A stretch of 4,132 nt of DNA, taken from IMG/VR virus record IMGVR_UViG_2778261667_000003; one strand, 5' to 3'. Shown one piece after another: positions 1 through 4,017 of the stretch; the stretch's first letter is position 1, and each line of letters begins with the position of its first letter. This DNA is from a virus (lineage: Duplodnaviria; Heunggongvirae; Uroviricota; Caudoviricetes). The notes beneath the pieces are model-generated. The model had not been told where the DNA came from. It did not search any database and was given only the letters and a program-made list of their open reading frames with translations. A program made the translations under genes and the position numbers.

Positions 1-124
1 AATTCATTGATTGTACATTTTGATTAGATTGGTTCACCGCTCGACGTAACGAGACAAATCCTCAAGGATTTCGTATGATTGCCATGTCATAGTTATGGCT
101 GCGCAATACAGGTGGCTAAAAGCC

Positions 125-149
125 CCCGTTGACTCACGGTGTTCCAACC
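125..149 (+). repeat. Copy 1 of a 25-nt module CCC-N-TTGAC-N7-GTTCCAACC
   Basis: Same module recurs at 685-709 with identical spacing; 19 of 25 positions identical, including the 9-mer GTTCCAACC and the 5-mer TTGAC. Confidence 0.6.
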
Positions 150-157
150 TGTATTGC
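129..157 (+). promoter_or_regulatory. Candidate sigma70-like promoter: TTGACT (129-134), 17-nt spacer, TATTGC (152-157). The spacer contains the GTTCCAACC box (141-149).
   Basis: Read directly: good -35, weak -10, correct spacing, about 55 nt upstream of an RBS-bearing small ORF. No transcription data. Confidence 0.3.
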
Positions 158-211
158 GCCGCCACCAGACCGTGGAACAGTCGATGGCGGCTTCGAAAGC
201 AAGGAGTCACT

Positions 212-482: not shown

Positions 483-512
483 TTGCGCCCTGGCATTATC
501 GTGGGGTATATT
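483..512 (+). promoter_or_regulatory. Weak candidate promoter: TTGCGC (483-488), 18-nt spacer, TATATT (507-512), which could drive a short transcript ending at the 576-598 terminator
   Basis: Read directly: good -10, poor -35. Speculative. Confidence 0.2.
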
Positions 513-518
513 TCTACG

Positions 519-598
519 GCACCTTAGAAAAACGGGTGCCGGGATTGGAACCCCGGATAATGTCAAAGGCGACACAGACGCCGAAAGCGTCTTTTTTT
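519..598 (+). ncRNA. Candidate small RNA or processed 3' UTR (about 80 nt) carrying hairpin B with loop AUUGGAAC and ending at an intrinsic terminator
   Basis: Non-coding interval bounded by a possible promoter (483-512) and a strong terminator (576-598). Contains a GC-clamped hairpin whose loop has a YUNR-like UUGG motif. No homolog identified; ends are guesses. Confidence 0.25.
539..556 (+). other. Hairpin B: stem CCGGG/CCCGG (539-543 with 552-556), 8-nt loop ATTGGAAC (544-551)
   Basis: Perfect 5-bp all-GC stem. The loop's 7-nt core TTGGAAC is the reverse complement of the core of the GTTCCAACC boxes at 141-149 and 701-709. Confidence 0.5.
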
Positions 599-603
599 GT
601 GTC
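571..603 (+). terminator. Rho-independent terminator: stem AGACGC/GCGTCT (576-581 with 587-592), loop CGAAA, then T-run 593-598; flanked by an outer inverted repeat GACAC/GTGTC (571-575 with 599-603)
   Basis: Canonical GC-rich hairpin followed by a run of T on the + strand. It lies after the small-ORF operon and hairpin B. Confidence 0.7.
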
Positions 604-684
604 ATGCCATCGCACAGCCATACGTAGCGTTTAGCTCAGAGATCAATGGTAGTGCTGGCTGGGCTGCCGAAAGGCAGGCCGGTT

Positions 685-709
685 CCCTTTGACGCCGGTA
701 GTTCCAACC
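685..709 (+). repeat. Copy 2 of the module CCC-N-TTGAC-N7-GTTCCAACC
   Basis: Direct repeat of 125-149, lying about 75 bp upstream of the Icd-like gene start. Confidence 0.6.
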
Positions 710-724
710 CAGTCAGTGCTACCG
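696..724 (+). other. Hairpin C: stem CGGTAG/CTACCG (696-701 with 719-724), 17-nt loop containing TTCCAACC
   Basis: Perfect 6-bp stem. Its loop is complementary to the loops of hairpins B and B'. Confidence 0.4.
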
Positions 725-728
725 CCAT

Positions 729-744
729 TGAGATTGGAACCTCA
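729..744 (+). other. Hairpin B': stem TGAG/CTCA (729-732 with 741-744), 8-nt loop ATTGGAAC (733-740), identical to the loop of hairpin B
   Basis: Same loop on a different stem sequence, which is covariation-like support for a conserved stem-loop. The stem is only 4 bp, so it is weak alone. Confidence 0.4.
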
Positions 745-763
745 CGCGGTAGCTCCTTAACTT
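734..763 (+). promoter_or_regulatory. Possible promoter for the Icd-like/Rha operon: TTGGAA (734-739), 18-nt spacer, TAACTT (758-763)
   Basis: Weak match to both hexamers. The -35 candidate coincides with the loop of hairpin B'. A transcript starting here would have a very short leader before the RBS at 771-775. Low confidence. Confidence 0.2.
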
Positions 764-783
764 AGTCAAAGGAGGCTGCCAAT

Positions 784-999
784 ATGGCTACTATCCCTAC
801 CCCAACTCATTCTGAATTTATCTGGCGTTTCTATTCCTGCCAAAAACACCTCTATATCTGCGTAATGGCTGCTACCGAAGCAGAGGCGCGCTCATACCTT
901 CCCGAAGAACCCTGCATTTTTGCTGCTCGCTTCACCCTTGATGCGATGGAGATCCTCAATTACTGGAATCTGCCGATGAACTGCGTGGAGGTGCACTGA
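784..999 (+). CDS. Small protein, 71 aa, resembling phage P4-type 'host cell division inhibitor Icd-like' proteins
   Basis: Strong RBS AAAGGAGG (768-775) 8 nt upstream of ATG 784. The sequence has FIWRF, ATEAEAR and FAARF motifs that I recall from Icd-like proteins of P4-like prophages; this is recollection, not an alignment. Stop TGA 997-999 overlaps the next ATG (TGATG). Confidence 0.6.
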   Translation: MATIPTPTHSEFIWRFYSCQKHLYICVMAATEAEARSYLPEEPCIFAARFTLDAMEILNYWNLPMNCVEVH

Positions 1000-1622
1000 T
1001 GAATCTGTCCATCTCTCAAAAAGCGACAATGACCAGCATTGAGATCGCGGAACTGGTAGGTAAGCGCCCTGATAACGTTAAACGCACCATTGAACACCTA
1101 GCGGAACGGGGCGTAATATCTTTTCCTCAAATTGAGGAAAAGCCCACCGCAGGCCGCCCGGCGAGCTATTACGTCTTCGAAGGCGAGCAAGGCAAGCGCG
1201 ATAGCATTATTGTCGTCGCGCAGCTCTCTCCGGAATTCACCGCCCGGCTGGTGGACCGCTGGCGCGAACTGGAGAATGCCAGGGGACCGTTAAAATCAAA
1301 AGCCGAAATCCTGGCCGAAATGGCGCAAATGCATCTTGAGCATGAACGCCGGATCAACGCCGTTAATGCCCAGGTAGCCGAAGTATCGGCACAAGTGTCC
1401 AAAGTCGCTGAAACCGTCGAGCAGATCAAGAAAGGCAATATTCCGGAAGGCTACATTGGCTATCGCCAGTTAGCGGCGAAATGCGGCCTGACCGAAGCCA
1501 AATGTCGCAACCTGGTCAACGCTTACCGGATCCCCACCGATACGCATGAGTTTTTAACTCCCGATGGTTTGCTTGCGAGACGCTCCATTGTGGCCCTAGC
1601 CCCCCTTCCGGAAAGCCTTTAA
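999..1622 (+). CDS. Rha-family phage regulatory protein, 207 aa: N-terminal Rha-like domain, central predicted coiled coil, short C-terminal segment with a possible helix-turn-helix
   Basis: GGAGG (987-991) 7 nt upstream of ATG 999. N-terminal SIEIAELVGKRPDNVKRTIEHL matches the conserved core of the phage Rha regulatory domain from memory. Residues around 120-150 (VNAQVAEVSAQVSKVAETVEQIKKG) look like a heptad-type helix, and GYRQLAAKCGLTEAKCRNLVNAY is HTH-like. Stop TAA 1620-1622. Confidence 0.8.
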   Translation: MNLSISQKATMTSIEIAELVGKRPDNVKRTIEHLAERGVISFPQIEEKPTAGRPASYYVFEGEQGKRDSIIVVAQLSPEFTARLVDRWRELENARGPLKSKAEILAEMAQMHLEHERRINAVNAQVAEVSAQVSKVAETVEQIKKGNIPEGYIGYRQLAAKCGLTEAKCRNLVNAYRIPTDTHEFLTPDGLLARRSIVALAPLPESL

Positions 1623-1629
1623 GCAGGTT

Positions 1630-1926
1630 ATGTCGGAGGCCGAACCACGTAATAAACGCTGGTATCATCCAAAAATGGGCCTCTTTCAGGCAATCAACCA
1701 TCCTTTACCGGAACTCCCAAAAGATAATCTGTCACTGCATACAGCCAGAGAGAAGATCAGAAGTGGATATGCAACGGTATGCCGTCGCGCATCATGGTCT
1801 GAAGGTGTATGGGTATGGCCCGAAGGTGGATCAAGAAAGCACTGGCGCACTATCCGGGATGGGAAAATCCATGCTATTGATTTAGCGCCAGAGGATATGG
1901 CTGCTATGGACTGGATTGTTAGTTAA
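1630..1926 (+). CDS. Small hypothetical protein, 98 aa, with a CRRASW ... EDMAAMDW pattern typical of a small phage/bacterial domain of unknown function
   Basis: ATG 1630 lies 8 nt after the Rha stop, suggesting coupling, but the upstream AGCAGG is too close to be a good Shine-Dalgarno. The R-R-x-S-W and DxxAxDW-I/V motifs resemble a DUF family (possibly DUF2829; the number is from memory and uncertain). Stop TAA 1924-1926. Confidence 0.5.
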   Translation: MSEAEPRNKRWYHPKMGLFQAINHPLPELPKDNLSLHTAREKIRSGYATVCRRASWSEGVWVWPEGGSRKHWRTIRDGKIHAIDLAPEDMAAMDWIVS

Positions 1927-2061: not shown

Positions 2062-2454
2062 TTAAAACTCGCCTGCGCGCTGTTTTTCAAGCACAGATTT
2101 AACATTTGGCGCTTTACCTTCAAAAGAATGGAAAGTGCCACATTTTTCTGTCTTCACCTCGCGCAGAGCTTCGCCATCGGCGTTCTGCCATTGATGGGAT
2201 AATGTCATATCACCGCGAGAAGGAACATCAAGCGAGTACTGCGTGTAGGTTCCCCCCATCTCCGCATACTCCTGGAACACATAGCTCATTACGTCAGATT
2301 CAGTTTTCTGATGCGCGTTATCGACCTTATTCCCATTCAGAAATATGGCATCCGGATAGATTTTTATATCAAACTGACCGCACTTAACTTGTAAATTTCC
2401 AGCACTCGCGATCAAAGGGAAAGACGCCAGTAAAGCAATAGCCAATCTTTTCAA
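2062..2454 (-). CDS. Secreted periplasmic protein, 130 aa, with a PliC/MliC-like fold pattern (lysozyme-inhibitor family), two Cys
   Basis: TTG start at 2452-2454 with GGAGG 5 nt upstream on the - strand. N-terminal signal peptide MKRLAIALLASFPLIASA with an ASA cleavage motif. Mature part has one Cys near the N-terminus (KCGQF) and one near the C-terminus (EKCGTF), with a W-x-x-x-D-G-E-A segment reminiscent of the MliC/PliC W-x-K-G-D-E-A motif. The SGSGA inhibitory motif is not evident, so function is uncertain. Stop TAA at 2062-2064. Confidence 0.65.
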   Translation of the reverse strand: MKRLAIALLASFPLIASAGNLQVKCGQFDIKIYPDAIFLNGNKVDNAHQKTESDVMSYVFQEYAEMGGTYTQYSLDVPSRGDMTLSHQWQNADGEALREVKTEKCGTFHSFEGKAPNVKSVLEKQRAGEF

Positions 2455-2474
2455 TTCTGCCTCCGTTGCGTAAC

Positions 2475-3098
2475 TTATTGACCGTGCTTTTTACACCATT
2501 GCTCTGCCATTTGTTTGGCCAAAGGTCCAGCCACTGCACTGTATTCTGCTGTTTTGCTTTGCACACATGATGCAGATGGTTTTTTATTGCGCTGCTCGGT
2601 TAGTTGGCGCTCATAAGCCATCATGCTATCGAACCCGGCAACATCACTCTGGCGAAGCATTCCCTTTTTAACCAAAAATTGCTGCCCCTCGGGCACCAAA
2701 GCAAGCATAAAAAGCGGTTGCAATAACTCACCTAACCCTTGCTGGCGATACACTTCGAATTGCTGCCATCCCTGACTTAATCTGGCAAGAGTATCTTTTG
2801 TTGAATAACCTGTTTTTGTTATAGCTTTGTCCGTCAGATACGCTGTATATGCAAAAACGCAAAAGTCAGATTTACCAATAAACTGAGTTCCAACTGGCCG
2901 TAATGGAATGCCCTCCCTCTTGCAAAAGTCCATAATTGCCGCTTGTGAATGATCCCCACCAGCGTTATTCATAACCTGCTGCCCTGCCCTGAATTGTGCG
3001 GGTAACGCAGTTGCATTGGCCATATTAACAGATACGCATCCCAACATAGCCGCGAGCGCGGTCCCTAAAACCCTTAACTTCACTACACCGTCCTTCAT
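2475..3098 (-). CDS. Predicted lipoprotein/exported protein, 207 aa, function unknown; first gene of a two-gene - strand operon
   Basis: N-terminus MKDGVVKLRVLGTALAAMLGC has a positively charged n-region, a hydrophobic core and a lipobox-like MLGC (Cys 21). ATG 3096-3098 has no clear Shine-Dalgarno; an in-frame GTG at 3081-3083 is preceded by AAGGA at 7 nt, so the true start may be 15 nt downstream. Stop TAA 2475-2477, 20 nt before the next gene's RBS. Confidence 0.7.
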   Translation of the reverse strand: MKDGVVKLRVLGTALAAMLGCVSVNMANATALPAQFRAGQQVMNNAGGDHSQAAIMDFCKREGIPLRPVGTQFIGKSDFCVFAYTAYLTDKAITKTGYSTKDTLARLSQGWQQFEVYRQQGLGELLQPLFMLALVPEGQQFLVKKGMLRQSDVAGFDSMMAYERQLTEQRNKKPSASCVQSKTAEYSAVAGPLAKQMAEQWCKKHGQ

Positions 3099-3363: not shown

Positions 3364-4017
3364 ATGGAGAAGATAGCAATATTCAGCCTGACCACCAGCA
3401 AACCGCAAATGCTCACTGCAATACTGAAAGACGGCGCTCTCGTGATTAACGAAGTAAAACCCCTTCCCGCGTCAGCATTGGAACAAAAGCAAAAAATTCC
3501 TCCAGCTATAGCAGCCCTGCGGAAAAGCAAATTTAAGGTACTGGTAGACGAAATTACACCAACGATCTCCGCTGGCACCGGAGCAAGCCAGGTGACTCTC
3601 AAGACCCGTCATGCCGATGGTAGAGCAGCAATCATCGTCGGGATGGAAAGATACAGAGAGTTAAAACTCCAGAAACTATTATCCCTGCCGCAAAATAACA
3701 AAGGTGCTTTCGAAATCCCCGACTCTATCGTTGATACCGAATACAACGGTAACGGAGAAGAAGTCTACAGGGTGAACTGGCAGGATATCAGGCCGGAACA
3801 TATTCTGATGATCCTGTGTTGCTACGCGACCGTATACCACAACGTTGCCAGTGCGGATTACGTAGAGCAGATGACCGGTACAGTCGAGAAAGAGCAAAAA
3901 ACAGGCATACTCGCTTCGTTCCTTTCCATTATTGGGCATGAAAAGGTTAAAGCAGGCAGTTCCCAGCCAAAGTCACTGGCTGGGAAAGAAGTTGATGAAG
4001 ATACCGTGATACTTTGA
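3364..4017 (+). CDS. Hypothetical protein, 217 aa, acidic C-terminus, no signal peptide, no recognisable domain
   Basis: Strong RBS GGAGGAAGG (3352-3360) just upstream of ATG 3364. The track's longer version starts at GTG 3322, inside the terminator hairpin, which is implausible. Long open frame with stop TGA 4015-4017. Confidence 0.7.
   Translation: MEKIAIFSLTTSKPQMLTAILKDGALVINEVKPLPASALEQKQKIPPAIAALRKSKFKVLVDEITPTISAGTGASQVTLKTRHADGRAAIIVGMERYRELKLQKLLSLPQNNKGAFEIPDSIVDTEYNGNGEEVYRVNWQDIRPEHILMILCCYATVYHNVASADYVEQMTGTVEKEQKTGILASFLSIIGHEKVKAGSSQPKSLAGKEVDEDTVIL

Follow-up and report, generated by a model that had tools for sequence, protein, structure and literature searches.

The leader region analyzed here very probably acts as a secondary-immunity switch of the immI type in a D6/P1-like plasmid prophage, and the module which it belongs to is the immI-type c4-icd-ant module of a D6-like plasmid prophage. 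The window, by which we mean the whole stretch of 4,132 nucleotides taken from the IMG/VR record IMGVR_UViG_2778261667_000003, contains a C4/CI-type antisense RNA gene in the leader of its own operon, preceded by an IsrK-type leader RNA and accompanied by four target sites. The immI region with c4, icd, and an anti-repressor is known from D6-like plasmids (PMC6799933), and the C4/CI-type antisense-RNA immunity switch found here is an ordinary element which was catalogued before. Direct support comes from the family membership, the structure, the site geometry, and the coordinated change of all six sites. The features are listed in Table 1.

Table 1. Features of the immI-type leader and operon in the window
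Feature	Position	Strand	Description
Candidate second C4-like RNA, upstream	91-169	+	RF01695, 38.6 bits (under the gathering threshold of 45); MFE -36.2 kcal/mol, z -5.7
Predicted sigma-70 leader promoter	483-512	+	-35 TTGCGC at 483-488, 18-nt spacer, -10 TATATT at 507-512
IsrK-type/a1b1 leader RNA	519-598	+	RF01394; two hairpins, sites a1 and b1, end at the intrinsic terminator
a1 (ATTGGAAC)	544-551	+	Loop of hairpin 539/540-555/556 (hairpin B of the sequence-only reading)
b1 (GTCAAAGG)	562-569	+	Putative decoy copy of the ribosome-binding-site target
Intrinsic terminator	576-598	+	AGACGC-CGAAA-GCGTCT; 6-bp stem, 5-nt loop, T7
C4/CI antisense RNA gene	642-729	+	RF01695; predicted mature RNA about 648-726 (79 nt)
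b' (CCTTTGAC)	686-693	+	In the 12-nt P3 loop, 683-694
a' (GTTCCAA)	701-707	+	Unpaired multiloop junction of C4, 700-707
Alternative helix 718-725/746-753	718-753	+	C4 P1 3' strand and downstream arm, enclosing the a2 hairpin
a2 hairpin	729-744	+	a2 (ATTGGAAC) in the loop 733-740 (hairpin B' of the sequence-only reading)
b2 and Shine-Dalgarno of icd	765-775	+	b2 (GTCAAAGG) at 765-772 overlaps AAGGAGG at 769-775; ATG at 784
icd-like gene, 71 aa	784-999	+	63% identity to P1 Icd; NCBIfam NF033153, 49.4 bits (cutoff 25)
Rha-type anti-repressor gene (ant)	999-1926	+	Pfam PF09669; frameshifted, the two parts being 999-1622 and 1630-1926

RNA families and host element

The Rfam C4 model (RF01695) matches positions 642 to 729 with 77.1 bits against a gathering threshold of 45 (E = 1.6e-14) and is covered in full length (model positions 1 to 87). 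The isrK model (RF01394) matches positions 519 to 597 with 62.7 bits (gathering threshold 50), the end of the RNA being the intrinsic terminator. Scoring phage P4 with the same two models gives 74.9 bits on the CI RNA gene and 60.8 bits on the seqA region. Because the two models which match the window also match these P4 regions, P1 C4 and P4 CI are one RNA family. A reading of the sequence made before any database search had proposed a P4 CI-like antisense RNA in the leader of its own operon and a short RNA ending near position 598; the C4 match bears out the former, and the latter corresponds to the predicted IsrK/a1b1 leader RNA.

The c4-a1b1 model (RF03163) reaches only 22.4 bits in the window, at positions 506 to 559, with a gathering threshold of 46.7. 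P4 is also under this threshold with 44.1 bits, and the leader sequence is nearer to the isrK model than to the c4-a1b1 model. Despite the low score, the function of a1 and b1 is probably kept, because both sites exist and follow the changes of a' and b'.

The window shares 87.8% identity with phage D6 and about 94% with E. coli plasmids of about 90 kb, which encode icd-like and Ant/Rha genes. Its flanking genes ref, icd, ant, and mat are the set of a D6/P1-like plasmid prophage. The window contains none of the P4 satellite genes alpha, sid, delta, and psu and is not a P4-like satellite. The closest functional model is P1 immI, with translational repression of icd-ant, and not the P4 element as such.

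Fold of the C4 RNA

The minimum free energy fold of the C4 RNA (-46.5 kcal/mol, z = -5.0) is the structure of the Rfam model, where the closing stem P1 (647-663/708-724) encloses the hairpins P2 (664-668/673-677, with the tetraloop GAAA) and P3 (678-682/695-699, with a large loop), as the C4 family requires. Among 13 homologues, P1 and P2 are 99% paired, with compensatory changes in 8 of the 17 pairs of P1 and in 4 of the 5 pairs of P2. For the structure overall, 93.8% of the cells are paired and 18 pairs show compensatory changes, which is matched by none of 500 shuffles. The predicted mature ends in the window are derived from the annotated 77-nt P1 c4 RNA, and the 5' AUGG context and the 3' GCC(A) tail past the C4 stem are P1-like.

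This fold changes part of the sequence-only reading, in which GTTCCAA was placed in the loop of a hairpin C (696-724). Hairpin C alone reaches -8.4 kcal/mol, and its arms belong to the C4 helices P3 and P1. Its pairing (696-701/719-724) is 73% paired and shows no covariation among the 13 homologues, and 283 of 500 shuffles are equally good, so hairpin C is rejected as a structure and replaced by the C4 junction. GTTCCAA is indeed exposed as a single strand, albeit in the multiloop junction of C4. The idea of antisense pairing likewise stands with the roles redistributed: the effector is the C4 RNA of about 79 nt, which holds the hairpin C sequence, and the hairpins B and B' are its targets.

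Target sites

Hairpin B, CCGGG (539-543)/ATTGGAAC (544-551)/CCCGG (552-556), and hairpin B', TGAG (729-732)/ATTGGAAC (733-740)/CTCA (741-744), have exactly the sequences described earlier. Their different stems had been taken for compensatory change around one conserved loop; however, as targets B and B' are paralogues of each other, and these differences are therefore not compensatory changes of a single hairpin. When the three proposed stems are followed through the homologues, the stem of B is 98% paired and invariant, B' keeps its three inner pairs with one compensatory change from G-C to A-U and an unconserved outer pair, and C shows no covariation.

The exact repeat around the a sites comprises 10 nt (GATTGGAACC at 543-552 and 732-741), and GTTCCAACC is present at 701-709. 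The repeated and complementary motifs are real and not random: TTGGAAC occurs in six copies on both strands of the window, whereas 0.66 copies are expected, and none of 200 shuffles reaches six. The leader region contains four of these copies, of which the one at 141-147 was absent from the earlier description. The a1 site is complementary to a' over 7 nt and lies where a1 is annotated in P1. The 7-nt loop complementarity proposed earlier is thus real, but it is not the only one, since a second site of 8 nt covers the ribosome-binding site. This second complementary triplet consists of GTCAAAGG at 562-569 and 765-772 and CCTTTGAC at 686-693, with three matches against 0.17 expected. Here, the complementarity of b1 to b' extends over 8 nt, or 9 nt counting one G·U pair, and b1 changes with b'; the position of b2 is that of the annotated P1 b2 site. 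The partners downstream of C4 are thus a2 (734-740) for a' (701-707) and b2 (765-772) for b' (686-693).

The TTGGAAC copies at 2887-2893 (minus strand) and 3478-3484 (plus strand) were considered as additional C4 targets and rejected, as they show no coordinated change. The copy in the mat gene reads GGAG in D6 and also in an E. coli plasmid with a GGAA-type a'; it does not follow the a' allele, so the extra copies are due to chance.

Coordinated change of alleles

We compared 37 unique D6-type leaders together with P1, P4, and three lambdoid phages. From one element to another, a' and b' vary, and the target sites vary alongside, partly by G·U pairs. Between the window and D6, the differences over positions 500 to 800 lie almost solely at the six sites and are coordinated: a1 and a2 change from GGAA to GAGA and a' from TTCC to TCTC, while b1 and b2 change from GTCAAAGG to GCAAAAGG and b' from CCTTTGAC to CCTTTTGC. 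Full pairing of a2 with a', b1 with b', and b2 with b' is found in all 37 D6-type leaders, and full pairing of a1 with a' in 36 of them. In one leader (L048), a1 reads TTGGCCT and a2 reads TTGGTCT, which pairs with AGGCCAA by G·U only; in the same leader, b (GTCTAAGG) pairs with b' (CCTTGGAC) by G·U only.

Nine modules, including those of P4 and the three lambdoid phages, have nine different a'/b' combinations, in which a' and b' each take 8 different sequences. In all nine, full complementarity is seen both for a2, at +5 after the C4 match, and for b2, which lies over GGAGG at +34 to +36. Among the D6-type leaders, two a alleles and two b alleles occur in each of their four possible combinations, sitting on two different icd backbones, with one recombinant having a mismatched decoy. 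According to RNAduplex, discrimination at a2 is modest (-8.8 kcal/mol for the cognate a' versus -8.5 kcal/mol for the D6-type a'), so that specificity would rest mainly on a1 and the b sites.

Leader RNA and alternative helix

The predicted promoter aligns column for column with the annotated P1 promoter P1c4/P51b (-35 TTGACC, -10 TATAGT), and its bases T507, A508, and T512 are invariant among 13 homologues. The transcription start is predicted near G519. A consensus promoter scan made no call at 483-512, because the -35 element agrees at only 3 of 6 positions. In the leader RNA, hairpin 1 (519-524/534-539) shows compensatory changes in 3 of 6 pairs. The strong terminator which had been noted just 3' of hairpin B is present, and its T-run is invariant across the 13 homologues. 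Hallmarks of isrK are an own promoter, Hfq binding, and the in-trans activation of the translation of a read-through mRNA.

The alternative helix listed in Table 1 cannot form together with the outer part of the C4 fold. This helix is 95% paired, with compensatory changes in 6 of 8 pairs and none of 500 shuffles being as good, and it is contained in the minimum free energy structure of the full leader. For the full leader, folding predicts two conformers of almost equal energy (-111.4 and -109.4 kcal/mol).

The icd and ant genes

The icd stop and the ant start overlap in TGATG at 997-1001. Both halves of the split ant gene match the phrog_63 Ant, and PHROGs identifies the 98-aa ORF as the C-terminal portion of Ant. 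The C-run at 1600-1605 has six C here versus five in D6 and in 21 of 23 relatives, and the frameshift may be a homopolymer sequencing error. With ant frameshifted in the window, the switch in this copy may control only icd or have a defective output. In Pfam and NCBIfam, the ORF at 646-765, the 31-aa and 55-aa upstream ORFs, and the 98-aa ORF have no significant domain, the DUF3319 match of the 55-aa ORF being sub-threshold (16.7 bits, cutoff 25).

Proposed mechanism

The RNA ends, processing, repression, and decoy action described in the following would be those of P1, P4, and IsrK, from which they are taken over by homology. The transcript would begin near position 519 at the promoter homologous to P1 P51b, and the terminator would stop most transcripts, giving an IsrK-like RNA of about 80 nt with the decoys a1 and b1. 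In P1, RNase P and 3' trimming excise a stable C4 RNA of about 77 to 79 nt from the leader transcript. The read-through RNA in the window would contain C4/CI, which is predicted to be excised in the same way. C4 would expose a' (GUUCCAA) at the multiloop junction and b' (CCUUUGAC) within the P3 loop, and could then bind in trans to a2 in its hairpin loop and to b2 over the icd Shine-Dalgarno sequence. As this pairing would involve b2, which overlaps the Shine-Dalgarno sequence, translation of icd would be blocked, and likewise that of Ant via the overlapping stop and start. The untranslated immI message of P1 also ends prematurely, by Rho-dependent termination.

The upstream sites a1 and b1 would compete for C4, either in cis or as a short RNA in trans, and thereby relieve the repression, and the specificity of immunity would be set by the a and b sequences. 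The supplement of Weinberg 2010 summarizes the C4 structure and the proposal that a1b1 is a decoy. The proposed relief would parallel the activating effect reported for Salmonella IsrK, which in trans raises anrP translation more than 100-fold (PMC4825925). The authors of that study see the activation as acting via orf45, which overlaps the C4-equivalent RNA, and not as C4 titration (PMC4825925); by analogy, their results might be re-read as decoy action.

Alternative explanations

Hairpins and repeats without any function have virtually no probability as an explanation. Taken singly, the small hairpins are unremarkable in thermodynamic folding (z of -1.06 for B and -1.09 for B'), but chance is refuted by motif counts above all or nearly all shuffles, by two Rfam models scoring over their gathering thresholds, and by extensive covariation within and between the RNAs. 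The sequence-only reading had left undecided whether the motifs pair as RNA or form a protein operator, i.e., DNA sites of 7 to 8 nt in both orientations for a repressor of icd-ant. In double-stranded DNA, a site and its reverse complement differ only in orientation, and three coordinated copies could in principle be an operator set. However, a1 differs from a2 and b from b' in the DNA of L048, so that they are not one operator, and at least 8 alleles per site would each require a matching change of the protein. The antisense copies are, moreover, always unpaired in an RNA fold with strong covariation and Rfam support, and in P1 the annotation gives these sites as targets of the C4 RNA. Because all copies change together and some pairing is kept only by G·U, the comparative data favor RNA-RNA pairing and make an operator very improbable.

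The region from 646 to 765 could also be a real 39-aa gene ("ash family protein" or orf45-like), whose translation would be regulatory, with no stable antisense RNA. RefSeq places an "ash family protein" CDS here in near-identical plasmids, the ORF is open over 37 to 47 codons in all D6-type leaders, and the translation of orf45 in Gifsy-1 contributes to anrP activation (PMC4825925). Yet the ORF has just 14 codons in P1 and in one further leader (L081), where the RNA structure is nonetheless kept, its ATG is the conserved AUGG at the C4 5' end, and the allele differences are non-synonymous but paired at the RNA level. With no Pfam or NCBIfam match and no good Shine-Dalgarno sequence 5' of 646 either, we consider such a gene improbable. 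Somewhat unlikely, but clearly less so, is a P4-type action, where the pairing of C4/CI with the flanking sites would chiefly terminate operon transcription early without a primary translation block. P4 CI is of the same RNA family, the P4 module has an equal geometry with b2 over GGAGG and an Icd-like start (ATGGCTAC), and P4 immunity is premature termination by CI pairing with seqA and seqC (PMC4825925). On the other hand, b2 lies over the Shine-Dalgarno sequence in all modules, as P1-type translational repression predicts, and a terminator scan finds no intrinsic terminator 3' of a2 and b2 within the window. Biere, Citron, and Schuster are said to have described the P1 termination in 1992 as a consequence of the translational block, in which case the P1-type and P4-type readings may be one mechanism. 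Translational repression by a C4 RNA as in P1 immI is the reading that we prefer.

An upstream C4-like unit

The C4-like unit upstream has a2/b2-like sites, TGGAAC at 173-178 and GAGTCA at 205-210 inside the Shine-Dalgarno sequence of an ORF at 212. It is conserved in D6-like plasmids, and its counterpart in a Shigella plasmid is followed by an Icd-like ORF. Its stem shows no compensatory changes, with one mismatch per lineage. The evidence for this unit consists of the way it folds, the geometry of its sites, and homology to the Shigella plasmid c4-icd unit. It appears to be a degenerate c4-icd module with the a' sequence of the main C4, and since this sequence is shared, cross-talk between the two could occur. 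We tentatively consider that D6-like phage-plasmids use a combinatorial immunity code, with recombination shuffling the a determinants independently of the b determinants, and that the element in the window runs two tandem C4-type units, of which the upstream one cross-talks with the main C4, although we regard this as rather doubtful. If it were true, the leader with its alternative helix would be a bistable multi-input RNA switch.

Significance for annotation

The main value of the analysis is the annotation of a C4/CI antisense RNA gene, an IsrK-type leader, and four target sites, and the "ash family protein" CDS label over the C4 region of the near-identical RefSeq plasmids should be removed. 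D6/P1-like phage-plasmids are common in E. coli, Shigella, and Salmonella, and the a/b alleles predict which of them share immI-level immunity. The allele series also is a natural set of compensatory mutants for studies of the C4 switch.

Comparison with known systems

The window matches P1/P7 immI, of which the P1 region is annotated from experiments, in the order and spacing of the promoter, a1, b1, a terminator-like hairpin, C4, a2, b2, icd, and the overlapping ant start. In both, a2 lies 4 to 5 nt past C4, b2 lies over the Shine-Dalgarno sequence, and the RNA folds into three helices; the specificity resides in a' and b' with their matched targets, as in the heteroimmunity of P1 and P7 (PMC6906374). 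The a' and b' sequences themselves differ, being CTGTCAA and CACTAAC in P1 versus GTTCCAA and CCTTTGAC in the window. The anti-repressor of the window is of the Rha/phrog_63 type and frameshifted, whereas P1 has Ant1/2, and no C1 operator was identified in the window. Unlike P1, the window has a leader which fits isrK over c4-a1b1, and an extra degenerate C4-like unit upstream.

The IsrK-orf45-anrP system of Gifsy-1 (RF01394; STnc1160) shares the succession of a short terminated a1/b1-type leader RNA and, upon read-through, a processed C4-equivalent RNA and an anti-repressor. In both systems the long transcript has two conformers of almost equal energy, and in one of them the leader pairs in cis with the C4 region; the two predicted conformers of the window leader mirror the structures A and B of IsrK. 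In contrast to the Gifsy-1 model, which uses an orf45 overlapping the RNA, the window has a separate icd-like gene between the RNA and ant. Gifsy-1 is an integrated lambdoid prophage and the element here a plasmid prophage, and in-trans activation in the window would be by analogy.

P4 CI with seqA and seqC is alike in RNA family, site geometry, b2 over GGAGG, and the start of an Icd-like ORF. It differs in the spacing between seqA and CI, which is 160 nt versus 97 nt in the window, and in its reported outcome, the premature termination of a replication operon.

Identification and anatomy of the leader module

The Rfam scan of the window identified a C4 antisense RNA (RF01695) at 642-729, with 77.1 bits against a gathering threshold of 45, and an isrK RNA (RF01394) at 519-597, with 62.7 bits against 50; the c4-a1b1 model (RF03163) gave 22.4 bits at 506-559, under its gathering threshold of 46.7. 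The elements of the switch were assigned by aligning P1, D6, and the window, where the P1 record annotates a1, b1, a 77-nt c4 RNA, a2, b2, icd, and ant1. The antisense segments of the C4 RNA are named a' and b', with a2 and b2 as their targets near icd and a1 and b1 as upstream copies of these targets. The inferred promoter, whose bases T507, A508, and T512 do not vary among 13 homologues, would place the transcription start near G519, the base at position 1 of the isrK model.

Elements of the C4-icd module in the window
Element	Position	Description
Promoter, inferred	483-512	-35 TTGCGC and -10 TATATT, aligning with the annotated P1 promoter P51b
a1	544-551	ATTGGAAC, in the loop of hairpin B
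b1	562-569	GTCAAAGG
Terminator	576-598	Intrinsic
C4 RNA	about 648-726	Mature ends predicted
b'	686-693	Within the 12-nt P3 loop
a'	701-707	Within the multiloop junction
a2	733-740	In the loop of hairpin B'
b2	765-772	Overlaps the Shine-Dalgarno sequence AAGGAGG at 769-775
icd	ATG at 784	
ant	TGATG at 997-1001	Start overlaps the icd stop

The sequence-only reading had described two hairpins with the same loop, B (CCGGG/ATTGGAAC/CCCGG, 539-556) and B' (TGAG/ATTGGAAC/CTCA, 729-744), and both are present as it described them, as is a clean terminator after hairpin B. The two hairpins share GATTGGAACC, repeated exactly over 10 nt at 543-552 and 732-741. TTGGAAC occurs in 6 copies on both strands of the window, compared to 0.66 expected, a number reached in 0 of 200 shuffles. 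A second motif set, which that reading did not list, consists of GTCAAAGG at b1 and b2 and its complement CCTTTGAC at b' (3 matches in the window, 0.17 expected).

Coordinated variation of the pairing sites

We fetched 80 IMG/VR loci encoding Icd relatives and aligned 39 unique 300-nt leaders. Across 500-800, the window and D6 are nearly identical except for six sites, which change together: a1 and a2 from ATTGGAAC in the window to ATTGAGAC in D6 with a' from GTTCCAAC to GTCTCAAC, and b1 and b2 from GTCAAAGG to GCAAAAGG with b' from CCTTTGAC to CCTTTTGC. The 37 D6-type leaders comprise five a alleles and three b alleles, and a fourth b allele, seen by eye in locus L081, was confirmed in the comparison of nine modules described below. 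In each of the 37 D6-type leaders, a2:a', b1:b', and b2:b' are completely paired, as is a1:a' in 36. In locus L048, the sites differ in DNA sequence yet pair through G·U, with a2 TTGGTCT facing AGGCCAA and GTCTAAGG facing CCTTGGAC.

The comparison was widened to P4 and the lambdoid phages Stx1_14040, phiP27, and ASU11, whose C4 and isrK genes are also found by Rfam. All a'/b' combinations differ among the nine modules, which have 8 different sequences each for a' and b'. The geometry is constant in 9/9: a2 lies +5 downstream of the C4 match, and b2, at +34 to +36, overlaps the GGAGG ahead of the Icd-like ATGGCTAC start.

The two common a alleles and the two common b alleles occur in all four combinations, a modular reassortment of specificity among D6-like phage-plasmids that we report as a new side observation. 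The sole mismatched site among the D6-type leaders belongs to a natural recombinant (L036), which has a D6-type decoy a1, ATTGAGAC, next to a window-type a' and a2 (GTTCCAAC and ATTGGAAC). Directly 5' of a2, the motif TTGAGAT at 727-733, which is the 5' arm of the a2 hairpin, is similar to the D6 a allele TTGAGAC, so that D6 has a tandem TTGAGA-TTGAGAC; this likeness hints at how alleles may arise. Through 727-733, the D6-type a' is also predicted to have some affinity for the a2 region of the window (RNAduplex, -8.5 kcal/mol).

Structure of the C4 RNA and the leader

For the C4 segment, the predicted fold is that of the Rfam model (-46.5 kcal/mol, z = -5.0), in which a' is unpaired. On a 13-sequence alignment of homologues, the Rfam-type structure is 93.8% paired with 18 pairs changed on both sides, and 0 of 500 shuffles were as good. 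Compensatory pairs make up 8/17 of the C4 P1 helix, 4/5 of P2, and 3/6 of IsrK hairpin 1; the stem of hairpin B is invariant, and hairpin B' has one compensatory pair and an outer pair that is not conserved. A third hairpin proposed earlier, C (696-724), is right in its sequence, GTTCCAACC at 701-709, and wrong as a structure, since its strands belong to C4 P3 and P1, it reaches only -8.4 kcal/mol alone, and its pairing is not conserved in homologues.

An additional helix, 718-725/746-753, which the sequence-only reading did not list, is a new side observation. It forms between the 3' strand of C4 P1 and an arm farther downstream, with the a2 hairpin inside it, and is incompatible with the outer portion of the C4 structure; in the 13 homologues, it is 95% paired with 6/8 pairs compensatory. 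This helix is part of the predicted MFE fold for the whole leader, 519-800 (-111.4 kcal/mol, z -4.2), in which a1/b1 are also paired in cis with b'/a' (541-543/708-710, 545-551/701-707, 553-556/695-698, and 561-569/686-694). Enforcing the C4 fold yields a conformer only 2 kcal/mol higher, and these two near-equal predicted conformers mirror the pair that experiments showed for the Salmonella isrK-orf45-anrP transcript (PMC4825925). The full-length fold also contains a local hairpin, 754-758/769-773, in which UCCUU is paired to the AAGGA within the icd Shine-Dalgarno sequence; this hairpin is present in D6-type leaders (window, D6, L032, and L080) and absent in L048, L081, P4, and P1.

Alternative interpretations

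The coordinated three-way change, including the G·U pairs, argues for RNA pairing rather than a DNA operator. A protein binding the repeated motifs is disfavoured, since some sites are compensated by G·U and the antisense copies lie where a covarying RNA fold is unpaired. The same strand carries an ORF of 39 aa over the C4 gene (646-765, plus strand), and RefSeq annotates it as an "ash family protein" in near-identical plasmids. However, the ORF has only 14 codons in P1 and L081, both of which retain the RNA fold, alleles differ non-synonymously, and the ATG of the ORF is the conserved AUGG at the C4 5' end, so a real gene is unlikely and the CDS is probably spurious.

A P4-style outcome by termination, which sequence alone does not tell from a P1-style translational block, seems less likely to us.

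An upstream C4-like unit and lambdoid modules

A second C4-like RNA at 91-169 (plus strand) scores 38.6 bits, under the gathering threshold of 45, and folds with an MFE of -36.2 kcal/mol (z -5.7). It has its own complementary downstream sites, TGGAAC at 173-178 and GAGTCA at 205-210, with the same 32-nt spacing as in the main module, the latter lying inside the Shine-Dalgarno sequence of a 31-aa ORF (ATG at 212) that is followed by a 55-aa ORF (304-471, phrog_7786). The unit is conserved in D6-like plasmids only, and no compensatory stem changes were found in the compared lineages. In a Shigella dysenteriae plasmid, the corresponding unit precedes an Icd-like ORF, and 91-169 thus looks like a degenerate second c4-icd module. 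Its a' (GTTCCAAC) equals that of the main C4 in the window, making cross-talk possible, whereas the two differ in D6.

The three lambdoid phages (L085 to L087) have a Roi/Rha-type gene upstream of isrK and C4. These RNA genes partly fall within CDSs that bear the annotation "antirepressor" or "DNA-binding protein", suggesting CDS starts mis-set over RNA genes.

Gene content and relation to known systems

The window shares 87.8% identity with phage D6, a plasmid prophage related to P1, and about 94% with many plasmids of roughly 90 kb from E. coli, Shigella, and Salmonella. An Icd-like gene and a Rha/Ant anti-repressor are annotated at matching places in D6 and these plasmids. An ImmI-related region with c4, icd, and anti-repressor has already been noted in D6-like plasmids (PMC6799933). 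The 71-aa downstream ORF is 63% identical to P1 Icd and matches NCBIfam NF033153, and the ORF after it has a Rha domain and matches phrog_63, "anti-repressor Ant".

This ant gene (999-1926) is split by a frameshift at 1600-1605, where the window has six C and D6 and 21/23 relatives have five; both halves (999-1622 and 1630-1926) match phrog_63 Ant. The frameshift may reflect a real pseudogene or a homopolymer sequencing error, and ant genes are truncated in several relatives too. Between ant and a mat-like gene (3364-4017), the minus strand has two ORFs whose N termini resemble signal peptides, one of 130 aa (phrog_13864) and one of 207 aa (phrog_12786), at 2062-3098, where D6 has pmgF, orf80, and a simB-like gene, marking a variable cargo or superimmunity spot.

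The antisense-RNA interpretation of the sequence-only reading was essentially right, given the two Rfam families above gathering, the P1 immI layout, and the coordinated sites. Its P4 analogy holds at family level, where the C4 model scores 74.9 bits on the P4 CI gene and isrK 60.8 bits on the seqA region, and the site geometry is identical; however, the gene content is that expected of a D6/P1-like plasmid prophage, so the window does not represent a P4-type element.

Both layout and homology indicate the mechanism of P1 immI, of which the Weinberg 2010 supplement and PMC8546580 give summaries. By analogy, C4 RNA from the operon's own leader would pair with a2 and b2, blocking translation of icd and, via translational coupling, of ant, and a1 and b1 would compete for C4. 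As in P1 and P4, the C4 RNA would be processed by RNase P, and the untranslated message would be subject to Rho-dependent termination. Salmonella IsrK, a short terminated a1/b1-type RNA, raises anti-repressor translation >100-fold in trans, and mutations in the a1-type hairpin abolish this activation (PMC4825925), from which we infer a decoy action on the C4-equivalent RNA STnc1160. Novelty is restricted to side observations, namely, the allele reassortment, the alternative helix, the upstream 91-169 unit, and the frameshifted ant; the system itself is already known and catalogued as Rfam C4 and isrK, P1 immI, P4 CI, and Gifsy-1 IsrK.
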